The notes below the pieces were generated by a model, which saw only the letters and a program-made list of their open reading frames with translations, did not search any database and was not told where the DNA came from. Made by a program: the position numbers and the translations under genes. A DNA stretch of 51,802 bases from Escherichia phage vB_EcoS_NBD2. Shown piece after piece: positions 2,024 to 51,802 of the stretch; the first letter of the stretch is position 1, and the number at the start of each line of letters is the position of its first letter. The DNA is taken from the sequence record NC_031050.1. One strand, written 5' to 3'.

Positions 2024-2557
2024 ATGATGTTAGAAATAAAGGCAAGCAAGGTTATCCCTGGGCAGATGATGGCAGTTGTTGGCGAAACCCGAATTGATAT
2101 TCCCGATTGGGTTTATAGCGTGGCGGTAGATGCAGATGGCGAATTGTGGGGCTTCTGCTCAATGGCGGAACCAATGCGCGATGGCGAAGTGTGGAACGAT
2201 CACACCAGCGCCGAACAATCACGCGTTGAGTTGCTGGGAGACTTCAAGGGCGGCGTTGTTGGCTGGGCTGACTCATTGACAGTTATCGATCGCGAGCCGA
2301 AGAAGAAGCCTAAAGCAGATCGCCGCGTGCTTCGTGGTCTGGTTCTGGATAGCATCACGCGCGACGTTGAGGCAGGCGAGTTGGGCGCACGCAATACAGC
2401 GGCAATCATTCGCGATCTGGATGTGGCGACGTTCAACGGCTACACAACGTTAAAGCTTGTGCAGGCATTCGCCCTGGCTGGCTATGATATCCGCAACACT
2501 CACACGATGAAGGCATTCGAAGCCATCGATCGCAAGGTTCAAGAGGCCTGGGCATGA
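2024..2557 (+). CDS. hypothetical protein
   Basis: 177-aa ORF, RBS gaaggaa, preceded by motif promoter. Confidence 0.55.
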   Translation: MMLEIKASKVIPGQMMAVVGETRIDIPDWVYSVAVDADGELWGFCSMAEPMRDGEVWNDHTSAEQSRVELLGDFKGGVVGWADSLTVIDREPKKKPKADRRVLRGLVLDSITRDVEAGELGARNTAAIIRDLDVATFNGYTTLKLVQAFALAGYDIRNTHTMKAFEAIDRKVQEAWA

Positions 2558-2658
2558 GCACGCTCGCACCCATTATCATCACAATCTGCGTGTGCCTCGC
2601 TATCGTCGTGATCTCAAGGCTCATCGTAACGGCTATCCGCATCAAGCGGGATGAATAG
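2554..2658 (+). CDS. small hydrophobic peptide (34 aa)
   Basis: ATG 2554 overlapping upstream stop; translation MSTLAPIIITICVCLAIVVISRLIVTAIRIKRDE is one predicted TM helix; below the ORF-track length cutoff. Confidence 0.35.
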   Translation: MSTLAPIIITICVCLAIVVISRLIVTAIRIKRDE

Positions 2659-2698
2659 CACGAAATGACAAAACGGCTGGCTCACTGATTGGTATACT
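2656..2698 (+). promoter_or_regulatory. motif promoter, degenerate (TAGCACgaaATGACAAAAC, 22 nt, TGgTATACT)
   Basis: Motif 2656-2674, extended -10 2690-2698. Confidence 0.5.
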
Positions 2699-2729
2699 TC
2701 TTTCCATACCAACACAGGAGCCAGTTACC

Positions 2730-2915
2730 ATGCAATACAAAACGATTTACACCCACTGCGGCAAGGCCTTTACAGCTAACGCTGACTCAATCGAATATCT
2801 GCCCTGGTTCGGCGTATGGAAGATGTGGAAAATCACATCAAGCGGATATGAAGAGTACTACCTCCGCAAGATGTATGTTGCCGAAGTCATTGAGCATGAC
2901 GAATTTTTCAACTAA
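2730..2915 (+). CDS. hypothetical protein
   Basis: 61-aa ORF, RBS aggag, preceded by motif promoter. Confidence 0.5.
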   Translation: MQYKTIYTHCGKAFTANADSIEYLPWFGVWKMWKITSSGYEEYYLRKMYVAEVIEHDEFFN

Positions 2916-2955
2916 TCACCAATCAGGGGCGCAAGCCCCTTTCAAGGAATAATCC

Positions 2956-3333
2956 ATGAAACGCATTAAAGTTAAATGCCTGGCAGTTGACCGTTACATT
3001 TCCGAGTTTTACACCCCTGGCAAGTGGTACACCCTGGAAGTTATTGAAAAGCTGGATATTGCCCAGCAGACCCGCGAGATTCCAACCGATCGCGATGGTT
3101 GCTCACTTCGTGTTAGCCGTGAGCGCGGCGACAATTACCGCTATCGTGTTGCGGGCTATGAAGGCACGCTGTTTGACTCGAAGCCGTGGCGCTTCCGCAA
3201 GAAGAATCATTTTTGCGTTGATATCGACTACAGCAAATGCGCTCGCTCAATCCGTCGCCAGGCTCGCAACGTAGCCAAAGAGCTTTATTCGTGCGGCAAT
3301 CTGGAGAAGATCGCGCGCAGCTATGGAAAATAG
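2956..3333 (+). CDS. hypothetical protein
   Basis: 125-aa ORF, RBS aagga. Confidence 0.55.
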   Translation: MKRIKVKCLAVDRYISEFYTPGKWYTLEVIEKLDIAQQTREIPTDRDGCSLRVSRERGDNYRYRVAGYEGTLFDSKPWRFRKKNHFCVDIDYSKCARSIRRQARNVAKELYSCGNLEKIARSYGK

Positions 3334-3373
3334 CACTTTTTGTTAAAACGCCGAATCGGGGTTGCGCTATAGT
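3331..3373 (+). promoter_or_regulatory. motif promoter (TAGCACtttTTGTTAAAAC, 22 nt, TATAGT)
   Basis: Motif 3331-3349, -10 3368-3373. Confidence 0.55.
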
Positions 3374-3404
3374 AACCCCATCAACAACGAACGAGGAAAT
3401 GCAA

Positions 3405-3620
3405 ATGCGCCTTTTATGCACATTCAGCCAAACGAAAAATTTCGTTGCTGGCAAGGAGTACGAAAGCGAAGTTGTACGGCGTTGCGGGATGGATTTCAAC
3501 GAGGTTAAGGGTGAAAGCGGCTTTCCCGTATGCCTTCAGCCTGGCGATAGCGCCCGCGATGTATCAGCTTTTTCCGGTCACAAACTGTTAGCGGACTTTC
3601 AACCAGTAGAGGATCAGTAA
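3405..3620 (+). CDS. hypothetical protein
   Basis: ORF 3237..3620 trimmed to ATG 3405 downstream of RBS gagga and motif promoter 3331-3373. Confidence 0.45.
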   Translation: MRLLCTFSQTKNFVAGKEYESEVVRRCGMDFNEVKGESGFPVCLQPGDSARDVSAFSGHKLLADFQPVEDQ

Positions 3621-3622
3621 TA

Positions 3623-3901
3623 ATGGAACGTTTTATCAAGATCAAATCGGATGGCGGTTATCACCTGGCGGCTGGCATGGAGGGCTGCATTGTTCGCCTG
3701 AAAGATATGCTGGGAGGCTTGGCGGTTGTTCATGCTCCAACGCTGGGGCTTTACTGCAAGCCTGAAAATAGTTTCCTTGCGAAACCTTTGGGCGTAACTG
3801 GCGAGCCTAATGATTACTTTTTCGGCACGGAAATGTATGAAGAGGTTGAAAACCCGTTCGCGCACTGGAATAAGATTAAGGGGGCACCTTGCGCAAGCTA
3901 A
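3623..3901 (+). CDS. hypothetical protein
   Basis: 92-aa ORF immediately after previous stop. Confidence 0.5.
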   Translation: MERFIKIKSDGGYHLAAGMEGCIVRLKDMLGGLAVVHAPTLGLYCKPENSFLAKPLGVTGEPNDYFFGTEMYEEVENPFAHWNKIKGAPCAS

Positions 3902-4131
3902 CCCGCGATGAAGAGCGTTTTAAATCGTGTCTCAAGAAGAGCAAGAGCAAAACCATTCACCTTTCAACGAATGGATCTCAACTCTTCTGGTACTTCAAGG
4001 ATGTTGATCAGACGGGCTGGCATCCTGAAACCATCACGGATCTGATCCGCGATGACCTTATTCAAATCAGGCTCATGGTTGGCGGCGGCGCTGGTGTCGC
4101 ATACTACCAGGGCATAACTTGGAGTAAGTGA
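3889..4131 (+). CDS. hypothetical protein (possible TTG start)
   Basis: ORF begins at TTG 3889 with strong RBS aaggggg 6 nt upstream; no in-frame ATG near the start. Confidence 0.35.
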   Translation: MRKLTRDEERFKSCLKKSKSKTIHLSTNGSQLFWYFKDVDQTGWHPETITDLIRDDLIQIRLMVGGGAGVAYYQGITWSK

Positions 4132-4132
4132 A

Positions 4133-4339
4133 ATGCAGATCTACACATCGCCAGGCGGCGCGCAATATCTTGTTTTTCGCGGGCTGGTATATTTCAAGCC
4201 AGTAGACGGCGGCGAGGTTAGAATGTCAGATATGGGGGTTGGTCGATTCCTTGACCTGATCGCCAAAGGATTCATGACATACAGCCGCACCGTCAACCCA
4301 GCATTAGCGTATAGGCCGGAGCACTGGAAACAGCACTAA
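4133..4339 (+). CDS. hypothetical protein
   Basis: 68-aa ORF directly after upstream stop. Confidence 0.45.
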   Translation: MQIYTSPGGAQYLVFRGLVYFKPVDGGEVRMSDMGVGRFLDLIAKGFMTYSRTVNPALAYRPEHWKQH

Positions 4340-4373
4340 TTGCTAAAACTTGCCCAGGGGCATTTGATAGAAT
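4331..4373 (+). promoter_or_regulatory. motif promoter (CAGCACtaaTTGCTAAAAC, 22 nt, TAGAAT)
   Basis: Motif 4331-4349, -10 4368-4373. Confidence 0.5.
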
Positions 4374-4413
4374 GCCTCTCATCAAGTTAACGCAACCAAC
4401 AAACGAGGCAGTT

Positions 4414-5004
4414 ATGACTATTCAACGATACACAATGCGAAGTGTAAATGGAGAGCCTGAAATGGTGGCTCACGGCGCAGGGGCGTATGTAACCTACGCA
4501 TCACACGCCGAAGAATTGCTCCGCGTACAGGGCGAATTAGACGCCTTAAAAGACGGCTTAAAACGTCAAATTTTCGCGCCACTTGAAAAAGCCATGATGA
4601 ATGCGCTTATTAAAACAGCAATGCAGGCAACGCATACCGTCTACACCGTCAACCCATGCGACAAGCTGACTTCCGAGCGAGTGCGTGAAATTATGGATGC
4701 CCAGATCGGAGCGGGGGTAATCAGCCTGGCGGAAGTTGAAGAGCGCGGTTTCGCAACTGGCGGATTTATGGCAATCCCAATAACACGACCAGATCCAGAA
4801 TCCCTGCTTTGCATCAAATCGGACGCCAAAAGCTTCAAGGCTGGAGAGTCTTACCAGTGCGAGGCCAACAAAGACGGCGCTTTGTTCGTAACGCAAGATG
4901 AATTCGTTTCCGATCTGAATGAAGATGATTACTGGCACGTCACGGACGGCGGCGCGTATTACATCGTCGAAACGATCGCGGGTAATGCCTACTTTAAGAA
5001 GTAG
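4414..5004 (+). CDS. hypothetical protein
   Basis: ORF 4372..5004 trimmed to ATG 4414 after RBS aacgagg; preceded by motif promoter. Confidence 0.55.
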   Translation: MTIQRYTMRSVNGEPEMVAHGAGAYVTYASHAEELLRVQGELDALKDGLKRQIFAPLEKAMMNALIKTAMQATHTVYTVNPCDKLTSERVREIMDAQIGAGVISLAEVEERGFATGGFMAIPITRPDPESLLCIKSDAKSFKAGESYQCEANKDGALFVTQDEFVSDLNEDDYWHVTDGGAYYIVETIAGNAYFKK

Positions 5005-31216: not shown

Positions 31217-31244
31217 TTGACGAATCAAACCAATCGCGTATACT
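31217..31244 (+). promoter_or_regulatory. sigma70-like promoter TTGACG-16-TATACT for recombination operon
   Basis: Hexamers 31217-31222 and 31239-31244. Confidence 0.5.
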
Positions 31245-31276
31245 CCACCACATCAACCACAAGCGAGGATTTACAG

Positions 31277-32335
31277 ATGACACCTACCAAACCGCAAGCG
31301 GATTTTTTCTGGTTCACAAACGATGAAATGCCGAACGACTTTTATCACGATAAAGAAGCCTGGACGTTCGACTATGTTTCCGGTTCAAGCCTGGGTAAAA
31401 TTCACTCATCATGCCTGGCAAAGTGGCGCTTCGAAGAGAATGAGCCAACGGCGGCGCTGGAGTTCGGCACACAGGCGCACACCAACTTTGAAAGCAACGA
31501 GCTATTCGCATCAACCTACCGACGCGCCCCGTTCGTTGAAGATTTCAAGGATGCTATCACTTCGCAAGCAGCATTCGCGGCTAAATTGAAAAGCTTCGGC
31601 CTGACAGGTACAAGCGGGAAGCAATATCCAGAGCTTTGCAAAATATACGCTGATTGCGGTGAAGATCTTAACGTAATGTGGATTGAAGATCTGATCGCGC
31701 AATCAAAGGCGGCGCACGATGGCGTTGAGTTGGTAAAGGCCGAAGATTATGATGCCTGTGTTTCAATGCGTAAGGTGCTGGAGTCTATACCGGAATACGC
31801 ACAACTCATGAACGATCCGGCAGCGATGCACGAGCTTTCATTGTTCGGCAAAATAAACGGCGTGAACGTCAAAGTTCGCCTGGATTACTGCGCAACAATC
31901 AGCGATCCTGAAATGATTAAGTTGCTGGGCTATAACCCAGAGATTAACCCAGAGATTGTGCTGATTCTTGACTATAAGACAACGACCAGCGCCAACCCTC
32001 ACGAGTTCGATCGAAAGGCGTTTGATCTGGGCTATTACTTGAAGATGGCTTTGCAGCGTGATTTGTTTGTCAATGTGTTTGAAGAAACGCGCCCCGTCGC
32101 AGTTGTCCTACTAACCCAGGAAAAGAAAGCGCCATTCTTGCCTCTGGCTCGACCAATGACGAAAGAGCAGATCATTCACGGGCGCAAGCAGTACATGAGC
32201 GTTATTCACCAGTACGAGATCAGCAGCCGTGATGATGTTTGGCCTTCTTACGCAAACGGCGCGCCATTCGTTCACCTGCAAACGCCGGATTACATCAAGC
32301 GCCAACATCCTGATATTTACGGCGAAAACAAATAG
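31277..32335 (+). CDS. PD-(D/E)xK-family recombination exonuclease
   Basis: Motifs VRLDY and ILDYKTT consistent with PD-(D/E)xK nuclease core; ORF 31217..32335 trimmed to ATG 31277 (RBS gaggat); precedes Erf-like and SSB genes. Confidence 0.5.
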   Translation: MTPTKPQADFFWFTNDEMPNDFYHDKEAWTFDYVSGSSLGKIHSSCLAKWRFEENEPTAALEFGTQAHTNFESNELFASTYRRAPFVEDFKDAITSQAAFAAKLKSFGLTGTSGKQYPELCKIYADCGEDLNVMWIEDLIAQSKAAHDGVELVKAEDYDACVSMRKVLESIPEYAQLMNDPAAMHELSLFGKINGVNVKVRLDYCATISDPEMIKLLGYNPEINPEIVLILDYKTTTSANPHEFDRKAFDLGYYLKMALQRDLFVNVFEETRPVAVVLLTQEKKAPFLPLARPMTKEQIIHGRKQYMSVIHQYEISSRDDVWPSYANGAPFVHLQTPDYIKRQHPDIYGENK

Positions 32336-32403
32336 CACTAAAAGCTAAACAAAAAGAGGCTCATACGGTATAATGAGCCTCAATCAAACAAACAAAGAAG
32401 GTA

Positions 32404-33087
32404 ATGAAAATGCGCACATCAGAAACGTTTTCCACGGTAGCGAAGGCACTCATTGCGGCGAAGGCTGATTTTGCACTTGCTAAAAAGTCTGGGCACAACA
32501 AGCACCTGGGCAACAACTACGCCAACCTTGATGACGTGTTAGAGGCGATCACGCCGTCAATGAAAGAAAATAAATTGATGGTTATTCAATCGACGCTCGA
32601 TCGAAGCACGGAAAAGTTGATGTACATAGAAACGATGATTCTCCATGAATCAGGCGAGTTCATGGCGTTTGAGTATCAGATGCCGATCGAAGGAACGAAG
32701 GCGCAGCAGTACGGATCAACAACGTCCTACGGTCGCCGATATGCACTTTGCGCAGTGCTTGGCATTAGTCAGGCCGATGACGACGCAGAGATCGCAAAGC
32801 GCACCGCATCGGATTACAAGAAACTGGTTGAGGCCTGCGAAGATCTCGAAATGCTGGGCAAGATTCACGCAGACGCACGCAGCAAGTTGAGCGCGGCAGA
32901 ATGGAAGATTGCAGAAGGCCACTTGCAGAAGCGCAAAGCAGAATTGACGGCTGGAGCGCGTCGTGGCTTCCCAGGAAATGCGCATAAGCCAGAGGCGCAG
33001 CCGGAACCGCAGCCAGAAAAACAAGAGCCTAGCCAACCAGAGAAAAAGGTTGTAAACTCCGGTTCTGAAATCGAAAACTTCGGTTAA
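32404..33087 (+). CDS. Erf-like single-strand annealing protein
   Basis: Position between exonuclease and SSB; low-complexity Pro/Glu/Gln-rich C-terminal tail. Confidence 0.5.
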   Translation: MKMRTSETFSTVAKALIAAKADFALAKKSGHNKHLGNNYANLDDVLEAITPSMKENKLMVIQSTLDRSTEKLMYIETMILHESGEFMAFEYQMPIEGTKAQQYGSTTSYGRRYALCAVLGISQADDDAEIAKRTASDYKKLVEACEDLEMLGKIHADARSKLSAAEWKIAEGHLQKRKAELTAGARRGFPGNAHKPEAQPEPQPEKQEPSQPEKKVVNSGSEIENFG

Positions 33088-33130
33088 ATATTAACGGGGG
33101 CGAAAGCCCCCAATCACAGAGGAAAAGAAC

Positions 33131-33598
33131 ATGCCGCACACTATCACTGGCGAGATCCGAAAGGCTCCATACACCAAAGACGGAAGCAACAACAATGGGC
33201 GCTGGAAGATGTACGCCGTTGACCTGTCAGAGCGAATGAAAGTTAAGGTTGAAGGGCAGGAACAGACCGTTTACACCAACTACCGCGCAGTTTTCTTCGC
33301 TAACGAAAACATGCTCTCCTGGTACGATGAAGCGTTCCAGTTGGGCAAGGTTGTTTCAATCTCCTGCGACACGCTGAACATCACCAGCCGAGACAGCAAC
33401 GGCACTGTATACACCACCGCCGAAATGATCCGCCCGCAACTGGTATTTAGTCAACGCGGCGCGCAGCAGCAAAGCGGAGGAAACCATCAGGGCGGGAATC
33501 AGCAGCAACAAGGCTGGGGGCAACCGCAACAACCGCAGCAGCAAAACAACCCGCCACCGAATCGCGGAAATCAGTTTGATGACGATATCCCATTCTGA
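33131..33598 (+). CDS. ssb: single-stranded DNA-binding protein
   Basis: Gly/Gln-rich linker and acidic C-terminal tail ending DDDIPF. Confidence 0.8.
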   Translation: MPHTITGEIRKAPYTKDGSNNNGRWKMYAVDLSERMKVKVEGQEQTVYTNYRAVFFANENMLSWYDEAFQLGKVVSISCDTLNITSRDSNGTVYTTAEMIRPQLVFSQRGAQQQSGGNHQGGNQQQQGWGQPQQPQQQNNPPPNRGNQFDDDIPF

Positions 33599-33606
33599 TG
33601 GGGGTA

Positions 33607-33637
33607 AAAGAAAAGGAGCCTTTCGGCTCCTTTTTTT
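33607..33637. terminator. bidirectional intrinsic terminator (GGAGCC-tttc-GGCTCC)
   Basis: A-rich upstream, T7 downstream, between convergent ssb and tail fibre genes. Confidence 0.7.
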
Positions 33638-35933
33638 ATTTCGCAGTAAGCGCTGCAACCAACGCCTTCAACTCTTCAACATCGCTTTCCAGTTTTTCGA
33701 TCCTTAAATCCTTCTCCTCATCCTTTTTCTTTAACTCCTTGAATGCCTCAACGTAAAGCGCAGATAGGGCAGAATAATCAACGCCCAGAGGTTTTTCTAT
33801 CTCCCTGCATTCCTTATCAAGCACCCCCTTATAATCAGTTTCCGTTACCGCTTCCGGCAGAATCTTTTTAACATCCTGAGCGATAACACCAGCCTTTCTC
33901 ACAGTGTCCTGGATCGTGGTGTGCATTGAATAAGTCACGCCGTTAAGCTGGCAGATCTTATCAAGTGCGCTTACCACTGGCTTAATCCAGAATTTCGCCC
34001 TTTCATCAGACGTACTGGTGAAGGTTGTGGCTCGACATTCACCAGTAGCACCGTTTAGCGTTAACTGCTGACCTGAAGCGCCAGTACCGACGTTATCAGA
34101 TCGCAGGTTAAGCATCTGTGTATCGTTAGAATAGATCACGGCGCGGTTTTTTCCGCTAGTGTTCCGTAACCATAAGTGGGTGTTTGATGTCCCAGCACCG
34201 CCACTAATGTAAACGCTCGATCCGTTAACGAAAAGGTTAGCCGTTTCAGTATCTTTTCCGGCAAGCCTGATTCTGTCGCTAAGAGTTATGTTTGACGAGT
34301 GAGTATAGTTATGGAAAACCATATCATCCGTGGTGTTTGAAGGGTTTCCAATATATCCAGTATTCTTTGATAGATCGTTAAACAAGATATAGTGGGAATA
34401 ACCAGCCGTCGCTGGCCTAATCGCAATAGACGCCTCCGGCGATGAAGTTGCGATCTTTGAACTGTTAAAGTTTACGTCTTGCGCCTCAACAGTCAACCTT
34501 CCCCCACCAATGTAAGTGGAACCCTTAGAGATAATGCTCGTATATCCAGCGTGGAATCTCAAGTTTCCGCCACCAATCTGATCGGAGTTCATTCCGTCGC
34601 AAATTATCCTTGCGTCATAGTCATACTTTCCGCCGTAGTGAAAATCAACGTAAGATGCAACGTTCGGGTTTTTAATCCCAACTTCAATATTCGCTGGGGC
34701 TGGAGTCAAGGAGTTGAATGTTACGTAATTCTCCTCTGTAATGGCTATTGTTCTGGGAACCCCTGCTCCGTCACGCTTAATCCACTCAACAGACCCGTTT
34801 GCGTTTGCTCTGTTTTCGCTTGTTACAATCGTTGTGCCATCAGCCCTGTTTCTCCTGGCAACTAATGATCCAGACGGTGCGGAATCATCACTATTTCGCC
34901 TAATCTCCAAAGCGTTATTAAGATACAGGTTTTGGAATGTTGGGGAGTTACCAACGCCAAGCTCAAGGTTATTCCTTGATGTCTCTTTGTTCGCCACGTC
35001 AGAAAGGTTATTAGCCTTCTTCAACTGGTTATCAGGGTTAGCGCTAGCCGCTCTATCCGCCTCCGTTTTTGCCCGATCCGCTTGCTGCGTTGCCGTGGCA
35101 GCCGATGCCGCCGCAGCAACCTTGCTGGAGTTTGCGTTAGTCTCTGACGTTTTGGCGTTAGTTTCTGACGTTTTGGCAGCAGTTGCAGATCCAGAAGCCG
35201 CACTTGCTGAACCAGCCGCCGCCGTCTGCGATGCCGCCGCAGCAACCTTGCTGGAGTTTGCGTTAGTCTCTGACGTTTTGGCGTTAGTCTCTGACGTTTT
35301 GGCAGCAGTTGCAGACCCAGAAGCCGCACTTGCTGAACCAGCCGCCGAAGTTGCAGAAGATGCAGCCGCAGTGCGAGAAGTTCCCGCCGCAGTTTCAGAA
35401 GCTTTGGCGTTAGTCTCTGAGGTCTTAGCCGCCGTCTGTGATGCCGCCGCCGCCGTCTGTGATGCCTTCGACGCATTCTCTGACGCTTTCGAGTTGGTTT
35501 CAGAGGTTTTGGCGTTGGTCGCAGCGGTGCTGGCCGTTTGTGCATCTGCCTTTACCTGGTTGCCAATTGCAACGATACGCTCCCAATCGAAGTTTTGGAA
35601 AAACTCGATCGCATCTTCGATTACGGTTTCTTTGCTTTGGTAGTAACGTAGCGTTTCCGCCACATCCTGCGCCAGCCCGTCAACTGTGATGGAATCGTGC
35701 AACAAGATCACATACTTCGTGCCAGCCGCCACAACTGCGCCATCCGTAGCAGTTGCCCGCATTTCGGTTGGGCTAACGATTGATGAGATAGTGCAGATCG
35801 TTAGCGGTGCAGTTTGAAAAATCATGGTTGCGCCAACGCGAACAAGAGACAGCTTGTCTTGCCAGTTGGTGCCAACCCCCACAATAACGCCCTGGGCATT
35901 TAGCGAGGCCGTGCCCGTTCTGTAAATAGCCAT
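33636..35933 (-). CDS. tail fibre protein with C-terminal intramolecular chaperone-like domain
   Basis: 765 aa; internal Ala/Ser/Thr-rich repeats (KTSETNA units); C-terminal segment with coiled-coil end (EKDLRIEKLESDVEELKALVAALTAK). Confidence 0.65.
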   Translation of the reverse strand: MAIYRTGTASLNAQGVIVGVGTNWQDKLSLVRVGATMIFQTAPLTICTISSIVSPTEMRATATDGAVVAAGTKYVILLHDSITVDGLAQDVAETLRYYQSKETVIEDAIEFFQNFDWERIVAIGNQVKADAQTASTAATNAKTSETNSKASENASKASQTAAAASQTAAKTSETNAKASETAAGTSRTAAASSATSAAGSASAASGSATAAKTSETNAKTSETNANSSKVAAAASQTAAAGSASAASGSATAAKTSETNAKTSETNANSSKVAAAASAATATQQADRAKTEADRAASANPDNQLKKANNLSDVANKETSRNNLELGVGNSPTFQNLYLNNALEIRRNSDDSAPSGSLVARRNRADGTTIVTSENRANANGSVEWIKRDGAGVPRTIAITEENYVTFNSLTPAPANIEVGIKNPNVASYVDFHYGGKYDYDARIICDGMNSDQIGGGNLRFHAGYTSIISKGSTYIGGGRLTVEAQDVNFNSSKIATSSPEASIAIRPATAGYSHYILFNDLSKNTGYIGNPSNTTDDMVFHNYTHSSNITLSDRIRLAGKDTETANLFVNGSSVYISGGAGTSNTHLWLRNTSGKNRAVIYSNDTQMLNLRSDNVGTGASGQQLTLNGATGECRATTFTSTSDERAKFWIKPVVSALDKICQLNGVTYSMHTTIQDTVRKAGVIAQDVKKILPEAVTETDYKGVLDKECREIEKPLGVDYSALSALYVEAFKELKKKDEEKDLRIEKLESDVEELKALVAALTAK
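35104..35355 (-). repeat. in-frame tandem duplication (2 x 126 bp) inside tail fibre gene, each unit containing a 2 x 21-bp sub-repeat
   Basis: Copy 1 starts 35104, copy 2 starts 35230, near identical; encodes repeated KTSETNA-type units. Confidence 0.8.
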
Positions 35934-51217: not shown

Positions 51218-51275
51218 ATTATTCCAATTATTCCAATTATTCCGAATATTCCATTCCACCAGAATAATTATTCCA
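51218..51275. repeat. tandem 9-bp ATTATTCCA-like repeats
   Basis: Three consecutive near-perfect units plus degenerate copies. Confidence 0.7.
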
Positions 51276-51301
51276 GATCTCGTTACAGATCAGATCCGAT
51301 C
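51276..51301. other. cluster of four GATC (Dam) sites within 26 bp
   Basis: GATC at 51276, 51288, 51293, 51298, followed by TGAT/GATG-rich tract 51300-51380. Confidence 0.6.
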
Positions 51302-51802
51302 GTGATGATTCGATGCCGCTCCTTTCGTGATTAGATTTGATGAGTTTTGATTGTGATGTGATGAATGATGATGATTGATGACACTAGACCGATTGGTCTA
51401 ATCATTTTTTCGCACCGCACTTTTTGCGCTTGTTATTGTTGTTGTCGTGTGTTTCAATTTCACGCCCTCCGTGGAATCCGAAACGGAATAGTTGTTGATT
51501 AACAAAAATAACACTATACCCTTTTATAGTAAGTAATTAATATATATAGGTTTTTTATATTATATAAATATTGTTGTTATAGATTGTTCTATATGTTTCA
51601 CCATTCACGGGAGATATGTATACATTTTCCGAAAGGAATGGGCATATGATATTGCGCTTCCATTTGGACGGCGTGACGTAGGTATACATATACCCCTCCG
51701 CAAATAGCGGAACAAGGGCAACAGCCGATAACATTCGTCGATAACAAGCGGTGCGCCTGCGCTCGCCTCGCAAAAAGTGTTATAAGGCCGATTATTAACA
51801 AC

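Follow-up and report, generated by a model that had tools for sequence, protein, structure and literature searches.

A near-identical pair of six-heptad repeats in the lateral tail fibre shaft of Escherichia phage vB_EcoS_NBD2: an old duplication probably homogenised by intragenic gene conversion

We analysed a pair of tandem repeats within the tail fibre gene of Escherichia phage vB_EcoS_NBD2 (NBD2, sequence record NC_031050.1), the type member of Vilniusvirus in the Drexlerviridae. The window, i.e. the whole stretch of DNA analysed, is 51,802 nucleotides long, and the positions of the features discussed below are collected in Table 1. The fibre protein is identical to ANM45899.1 / YP_009284681.1, tail fibre protein, by exact-sequence look-up. 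PHROG tail-fibre families match along its whole length, and Pfam gives a gp37_trimer match at aa 504-555 besides the C-terminal Peptidase_S74 domain. In the AlphaFold2 (AF2) model the N-terminal anchor domain has strands in aa 3-77 and a helix in aa 84-114, and a tblastn search found 60-72% amino acid identity between aa 1-116/130 and dozens of Drexlerviridae fibres, including those of BASEL phages annotated as lateral tail fibre. The gene is flanked by ERF and SSB on one side and by a primase zinc ribbon on the other, an order shared with the Klebsiella phages vB_KM5a1_KLB19 (KLB19, PP526029.1) and vB_KaeD_HazelMika (HazelMika), our two close relatives for comparison, and with Henu7, a phage of a different subfamily used as the outgroup; this is the lateral tail fibre position. 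The homologous anchor, the conserved genomic position and the C-terminal S74 domain together identify the NBD2 protein as a lateral tail fibre.

The two 126-bp units in this gene are nearly identical and both are in frame. Tandem Repeats Finder (TRF) reports a repeat at 35103-35347 with period 126, 1.9 copies, 98% matches, 0 indels and a score of 476. At an offset of 126 bp, the segments 35103-35221 and 35229-35347 share 117/119 bases, and the two mismatches, at plus-strand positions 35163 and 35190, are both A/G and both synonymous (GGG/GGA and GAG/GAA). A separate repeat search grouped 35103-35228 and 35229-35354 as a 126-nt family whose two members are 94% identical when compared along all 126 nt. 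We compared the observed match with a null model in which codons were shuffled among the heptads while the composition of each heptad position was kept. Over 2000 shuffles, the best 119-nt match at offsets that are multiples of 21 had a mean of 72.9 and a standard deviation of 2.8, with a maximum of no more than 84 against the observed 117, which shows a genuine repeat far outside the range of chance. The 42 aa that each unit encodes (AAGSASAASGSATAAKTSETNAKTSETNANSSKVAAAASQT/AA) are the six heptads AAGSASA ASGSATA AKTSETN AKTSETN ANSSKVA AAASQTA, so that AKTSETN is present twice per unit. An earlier sequence-only reading of this DNA had placed two near-identical 126-bp units of 42 aa at 35104-35355, in frame within a tail fibre gene and containing 21-bp sub-repeats that encode KTSETNA-type heptads. 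Its description was sound on all of these counts, including the tandem periodicity expected from a self-comparison, and its coordinates were correct to within 8 nt. It had also described more degenerate copies across 35040-35560, which exist as 21-bp heptads but not as 126-bp units: the 126 nt preceding unit 1, tried as a third unit, are 55-63% identical to it and were rejected as heptad background.

The units are part of a longer array of heptads that would form the shaft of the fibre, each unit making up six of the 25 heptads. Within the heptad, A occupies position 1 in 22/25 cases and S occupies position 4 in 20/25; T is found at position 6 in 15/25, and either A or N at position 7 in 19/25. 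The AF2 monomer, predicted from an alignment of 18 sequences, shows a single unbroken helix from aa 117 to 297, with block-mean predicted local distance difference test (pLDDT) values of 86-96 across aa 121-280. Coiled coils extend by ~1.5 Å per residue as a general figure, and at this rise the helix would be ~27 nm long and each 42-aa unit would contribute ~6 nm. With the low-complexity coiled-coil region of an E. coli PF08400 prophage side tail fibre, the array shares 54% identity. A PDB search with the fibre protein gave weak matches only (E = 1e-3 to 1e-2), namely to the N-terminal regions of Klebsiella phage depolymerases, residues 85-237 of T5 pb1 and residues 182-270 of T7 gp17; these are consistent with fibre shafts without proving them.

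Table 1. Positions of the tail fibre gene of NBD2, its domains and repeats, the proposed conversion tract and the neighbouring recombination genes
Feature	Position	Strand	Basis or role
Tail fibre gene, 765 aa	33636-35933	minus	Open reading frame (ORF) list, Pfam, PHROG, exact-sequence match
N-terminal anchor domain, small beta domain followed by a helix	~aa 1-116, 35586-35933	minus	AF2, tblastn
Heptad array, 25 heptads A-x-x-S-x-T-A/N	aa 127-301, 35031-35555	minus	Position composition, AF2
Unit 1, 5' copy, gene nt 587-712	35222-35347	minus	Inferred conversion donor
Unit 2, 3' copy, gene nt 713-838	35096-35221	minus	Inferred conversion recipient
21-bp sub-repeat GCCAAAACGTCAGAGACTAAC x2 (AKTSETN AKTSETN) in unit 1	35260-35303	minus	TRF period 21, 100%
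21-bp sub-repeat, twin in unit 2	35134-35177	minus	TRF period 21, 95%
Putative minimum conversion tract, 94 bp, spanning 13 diagnostic sites	35118-35211	minus	
Putative maximum conversion tract, ~126 bp	~35103-35228	minus	
Peptidase_S74 (PF13884), C-terminal intramolecular chaperone	aa 642-697, 33843-34010	minus	Pfam, E = 3.3e-13
PDDEXK-like exonuclease (DUF3799), ERF-family annealing protein and SSB	31217-33598	plus	

The array is a coiled-coil shaft of a known type, PCoil, its alpha-helical form in NBD2 being predicted by AF2. The PCoil domain was described in EPclA and EPclB, side-tail-fibre-like proteins of E. coli prophages, as a low-complexity region with an Ala-x-x-Ala/Ser-x-x-Ser period (Ghosh et al. 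2012, PMC3368898), and was shown to be alpha-helical and trimeric, with homologue lengths that differ in multiples of seven residues (PMC3368898). The NBD2 array likewise follows an N-terminal fibre domain with a loose, Ala/Ser-rich period of seven residues. It differs from EPclA and EPclB in that its anchor is of the Drexlerviridae type and not PF08400, no collagen domain follows the array, and AKTSETN dominates among its heptads, which have the form A-x-x-S-x-T-A/N. By analogy with these proteins (PMC3368898), and given the trimeric S74 and gp37_trimer domains, the coiled coil is presumably trimeric.

The duplication is old and its copy number has not changed, as KLB19 and HazelMika both have these two units, joined in the same way, in a shaft of equal length. 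The backbone beside the fibre gene is 98.5% identical between NBD2 and KLB19, and 98.2% between NBD2 and HazelMika. The whole array aligns without any indel among the three phages, and the junction between the two units (...GCATCGCAGACGG|CGGCGGCTGG...) is common to all of them. The spacer between the motifs FDW and NLSDV is 191 aa in these three and in a related locus (L009), and 198 aa in Henu7, a difference that is a multiple of seven residues as among the PCoil homologues. Within the two relatives, the copies have diverged from each other (100/119 identical bases in KLB19, 90/119 in HazelMika). The sequence-only reading had taken the pair for a recent duplication that added a copy, and had proposed comparing copy number across related phages; this claim is not supported by the comparison, which gives exactly two units in each relative and no difference. 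Its further suggestion, that such repeats expand or contract, fits the distant Henu7 with its longer spacer but finds no instance among the close relatives.

The two units of NBD2 are closer to each other than to the orthologous units of the relatives. Unit 2 of NBD2 shares 117/119 bases with NBD2 unit 1, 112/119 with KLB19 unit 1 and 114/119 with HazelMika unit 1, compared with 104/119 and 89/119 for the orthologous unit 2 of KLB19 and HazelMika, respectively; thus it is closer to unit 1 of all three genomes than to its own orthologues. Compared with unit 1 of NBD2, unit 1 has 114/119 identical bases in HazelMika and 110/119 in KLB19, and the unit 2 sequences of KLB19 and HazelMika agree with each other at 103/119.

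The pattern along unit 2 marks a tract with clean edges. We defined diagnostic sites as the positions that distinguish the unit-1 consensus of the relatives from their unit-2 consensus, 16 in total. At all 13 of the 13 diagnostic sites between unit positions 10 and 103 (35118-35211), NBD2 unit 2 carries the unit-1 state, while at the other three, unit positions 119, 120 and 125 (35102, 35101 and 35096), it carries the unit-2 state. The last 7 nt of NBD2 unit 2 (positions 119-125) have retained the ancestral unit-2 sequence. In Henu7, 12/13 of the sites in the tract are in the unit-2 state. At unit position 88 both NBD2 units have an A that is found in no other sequence.

These observations, i.e. 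paralogues closer than orthologues, clean tract edges and unchanged length, are together the classical mark of gene conversion within a gene, with unit 1 as donor and unit 2 as recipient. Our analysis indicates that the NBD2 pair is probably an in-frame six-heptad pair in the coiled-coil shaft of a lateral fibre, which arose by an old duplication and was homogenised by conversion of unit 2 from unit 1. An alternative could be that a new tandem duplication of the 126-bp unit lengthened the NBD2 fibre, or, as a variant, that unit 2 was lost and unit 1 was then duplicated again. Copies that are 98% identical and strictly tandem are what such an event would leave, and the number of heptads does vary among distant relatives (AKTSETN occurs three times in Henu7). 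However, length, register and unit junction are equal in KLB19 and HazelMika with no indel, and the ancestral last 7 nt of unit 2 make the boundary a conversion edge rather than a duplication junction; in the variant, two events would have to hit exactly the ancestral boundaries. We regard a new duplication, in either form, as quite unlikely.

The tract edge and the matched length also bear on the possibility that the likeness of the copies was made by short-read mis-assembly. Repeats that are shorter than or comparable to the read length can be mis-resolved, but mis-assembly usually collapses or expands the copies, and here the length is that of two independently sequenced relatives. Moreover two sites distinguish the copies, and the sequence returns cleanly to the ancestral one at the tract edge, so an artefact of this kind is highly improbable. 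Harder still to credit is programmed variation, such as a diversity-generating retroelement with its template and variable repeats. Two similar units of ~120 bp in a receptor-binding protein gene, with both differences A/G, do recall such a system, but both differences are synonymous, the tandem units lie within the shaft, away from the C-terminal end that binds the ligand, and the annotation of HazelMika, with a backbone 98% identical to that of NBD2, lists no reverse transcriptase.

Several points weigh against the conversion that we propose. The collections searched contained just two close relatives, whose backbones and that of NBD2 are related in a near-star, and the polarity therefore depends mainly on the single outgroup, Henu7, together with parsimony. 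An identical sequence would also result if unit 2 had been lost and unit 1 then duplicated again. The structure prediction covers the monomer only. The divergence between the NBD2 copies, 2/119 (1.7%), rests on two sites and is not below that of the backbone, 0.6-0.9%, and hence the event can be called recent in a relative sense only.

The near-star also leaves room for the reversed polarity, in which the near-identical units are ancestral and KLB19 and HazelMika gained a diverged unit 2 from the fibre genes of other phages. Among the three phages the fibre gene differs by 4-12% compared with 0.6-0.9% for the 2.5 kb of upstream backbone, which suggests allele exchange, and Henu7, although from another subfamily, has a very similar unit-2 segment, so such sequence does circulate. 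Yet the unit 2 sequences of KLB19 and HazelMika differ at 16/119 sites, which would call for two imports of the same length and register, and the NBD2-specific base at position 88 in both copies is expected if one templated the other. We consider this scenario very unlikely. Double import and deletion followed by re-duplication are both disfavoured, as one conversion accounts for the pattern in fewer steps.

The conversion from unit 1 to unit 2 could have proceeded as follows. The two-unit arrangement would predate the split from KLB19 and HazelMika, and before the event the units would have been ~76-84% identical, with long identical stretches. Misaligned units may then have paired during replication or recombination, and heteroduplex repair or template switching would have yielded the tract. 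By this non-reciprocal intragenic recombination in the NBD2 lineage, at least 94 bp of unit 1 would have been copied over unit 2, leaving copies that are 98% identical and a shaft of unchanged length; the two synonymous differences between the NBD2 units would have accumulated afterwards. Relative to KLB19 and HazelMika, the protein shows the changes A268N and T272V (AASSKTA to ANSSKVA), and we infer that the conversion was functionally near-neutral.

The genes for an exonuclease, ERF and SSB immediately downstream of the fibre gene, on the plus strand and converging on it, are a complete phage recombination module. The ERF protein, the PDDEXK exonuclease and SSB make up a single-strand-annealing system of the phage's own, which might have been involved in this event.

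Homogenised heptad blocks appear to be routine in shafts of this type. We scanned the related loci for an internal in-frame direct repeat of at least 60 nt with at least 95% identity, the copies being offset by a multiple of 21 nt; those detected lie in the heptad regions. Such a repeat is present in 44/87 related loci fetched, mostly side-tail-fibre genes of lambda-like prophages in IMG/VR, and the usual offset among the 44 is 189 nt, i.e. nine heptads. With near-identical repeats in so many loci, repeat homogenisation suggests itself as widespread in Ala/Ser heptad shafts. The NBD2 pair is an ordinary feature of such fibres, with a negligible effect on the protein.

A more far-reaching hypothesis could be that the array is a recombination hot spot served by ERF, the exonuclease and SSB, and that lysates contain minority variants with one unit or three. 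If this were true, the shafts of these variants would be ~6 nm shorter or longer, homogenisation would maintain a substrate for length switching, the array would be a contingency locus for fibre reach, and the NBD2 conversion would be one footprint of such switching. A contingency-type locus should differ in copy number, but KLB19 and HazelMika equally have two units. We think this hypothesis unlikely.

On this reading the NBD2 repeat is no new insertion but an old duplication homogenised by gene conversion, and the finding matters little beyond annotation. It is a clean, small case of concerted evolution within a phage structural gene, and a caution that near-identical tandem copies alone do not imply a recent duplication. 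For phage engineering, it indicates that the shaft tolerates block-wise exchange, and probably a change in heptad number too.

Homogenised coiled-coil repeats are familiar from the streptococcal M proteins, in which repeat blocks are homogenised by intragenic recombination or conversion and paralogues become closer than orthologues. The NBD2 units are also closer within the genome than between genomes. The difference is that the NBD2 fibre is a structural protein of a phage, with no evidence of immune or host-driven size variation. In the T4 gene 37, in work ascribed to Tetart et al. (1996, J Mol Biol), in-frame tandem duplications reportedly arose via recombination between short repeats and changed the host range. 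Those duplications sit in the receptor-binding tip, whereas the NBD2 repeat lies in the shaft, with copy number unchanged and two residues altered. A literature search on tail fibre tandem duplication together with gene conversion found nothing.

The overall design of the NBD2 fibre agrees with other Drexlerviridae lateral fibres, which have an N-terminal coiled coil, a T5-like tip and an intramolecular chaperone (PMC11990801, PMC12090712). Gp36 of JakobBernoulli (PMC11990801) and gp28 of the Cronobacter phages CRES7 and CRES9 (PMC12090712) are encoded between SSB and primase as in NBD2, and share with it a homologous N-terminal domain, an elongated coiled coil, a distal beta-rich tip and a C-terminal S74 domain. 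NBD2 differs from the Drexlerviridae lateral fibres in its distal half, which is at most 44-56% identical to that of any phage in the collection. This presumably receptor-binding half (33636-34943, aa 331-765) has no close relative in the phage collection, its best match being Enterobacter phage Ec_L1 with 56% amino acid identity. The distal half of KLB19 is 45% identical overall, with a shared middle part, and the distal part of HazelMika is completely different.

We looked for closer relatives of the NBD2 fibre in larger collections. The IMG/VR scan gave none, with a best match of ~66% amino acid identity in the anchor domain; the JGI and ENA metagenome contigs gave none, with a best match of 68%; and the GTDB genome contigs gave no relative. 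A search of 5.8 billion proteins returned nothing above 61% identity and was swamped by low-complexity words. The exact-sequence cluster look-up returned the NBD2 fibre itself plus an unrelated 50-aa representative. This representative, a Logan peptide that stands for the 90%-identity cluster of the NBD2 fibre, looks like a database oddity.

The fibre genes of NBD2, KLB19 and HazelMika differ in other respects as well. The anchor (aa 1-122, 35568-35933) is 100% identical in protein among the three, and its DNA differs at 10-21/380 sites, all synonymous, compared with the 0.6-0.9% in the 2.5 kb upstream. To judge by these sequences, the fibre alleles appear to have a much deeper common ancestry than the backbone and to have evolved under strict purifying selection. 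KLB19 and HazelMika carry a module of ~63 aa that NBD2 is without (NBD2 ~34974-34994, aa 314-320); the module is flanked by the motifs NNLSDV.N..T and ARNNLE and includes GxWG...GGTG. Its absence looks like a deletion or a module swap between two short repeated motifs. We also observed that 2501-4858 of the locus (L001) taken from PP526029.1 (KLB19) contains an intact tail fibre ORF of 785 aa without CDS annotation, where the locus tags skip from MVRG_026 to MVRG_028.

A 300-aa ORF on the plus strand (34741-35643, ALVSDVLALVSDVL...) runs antisense to the heptad array, and a similar antisense ORF is present in KLB19. For the three close phages, the ratios of synonymous to non-synonymous differences are 24:8, 39:11 and 32:9 in the minus-strand fibre frame, and 13:16, 29:23 and 22:19 in the antisense frame, respectively. 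A clear synonymous excess is confined to the minus-strand frame, so the minus strand is the coding strand and we rejected the antisense ORF as coding. It is a by-product of the codon periodicity of Ala, Ser and Thr. Away from the fibre gene, near the end of the window (51218-51381), there is a cluster of short AT-rich tandem repeats with units of 9-10 nt in 3-4 copies.

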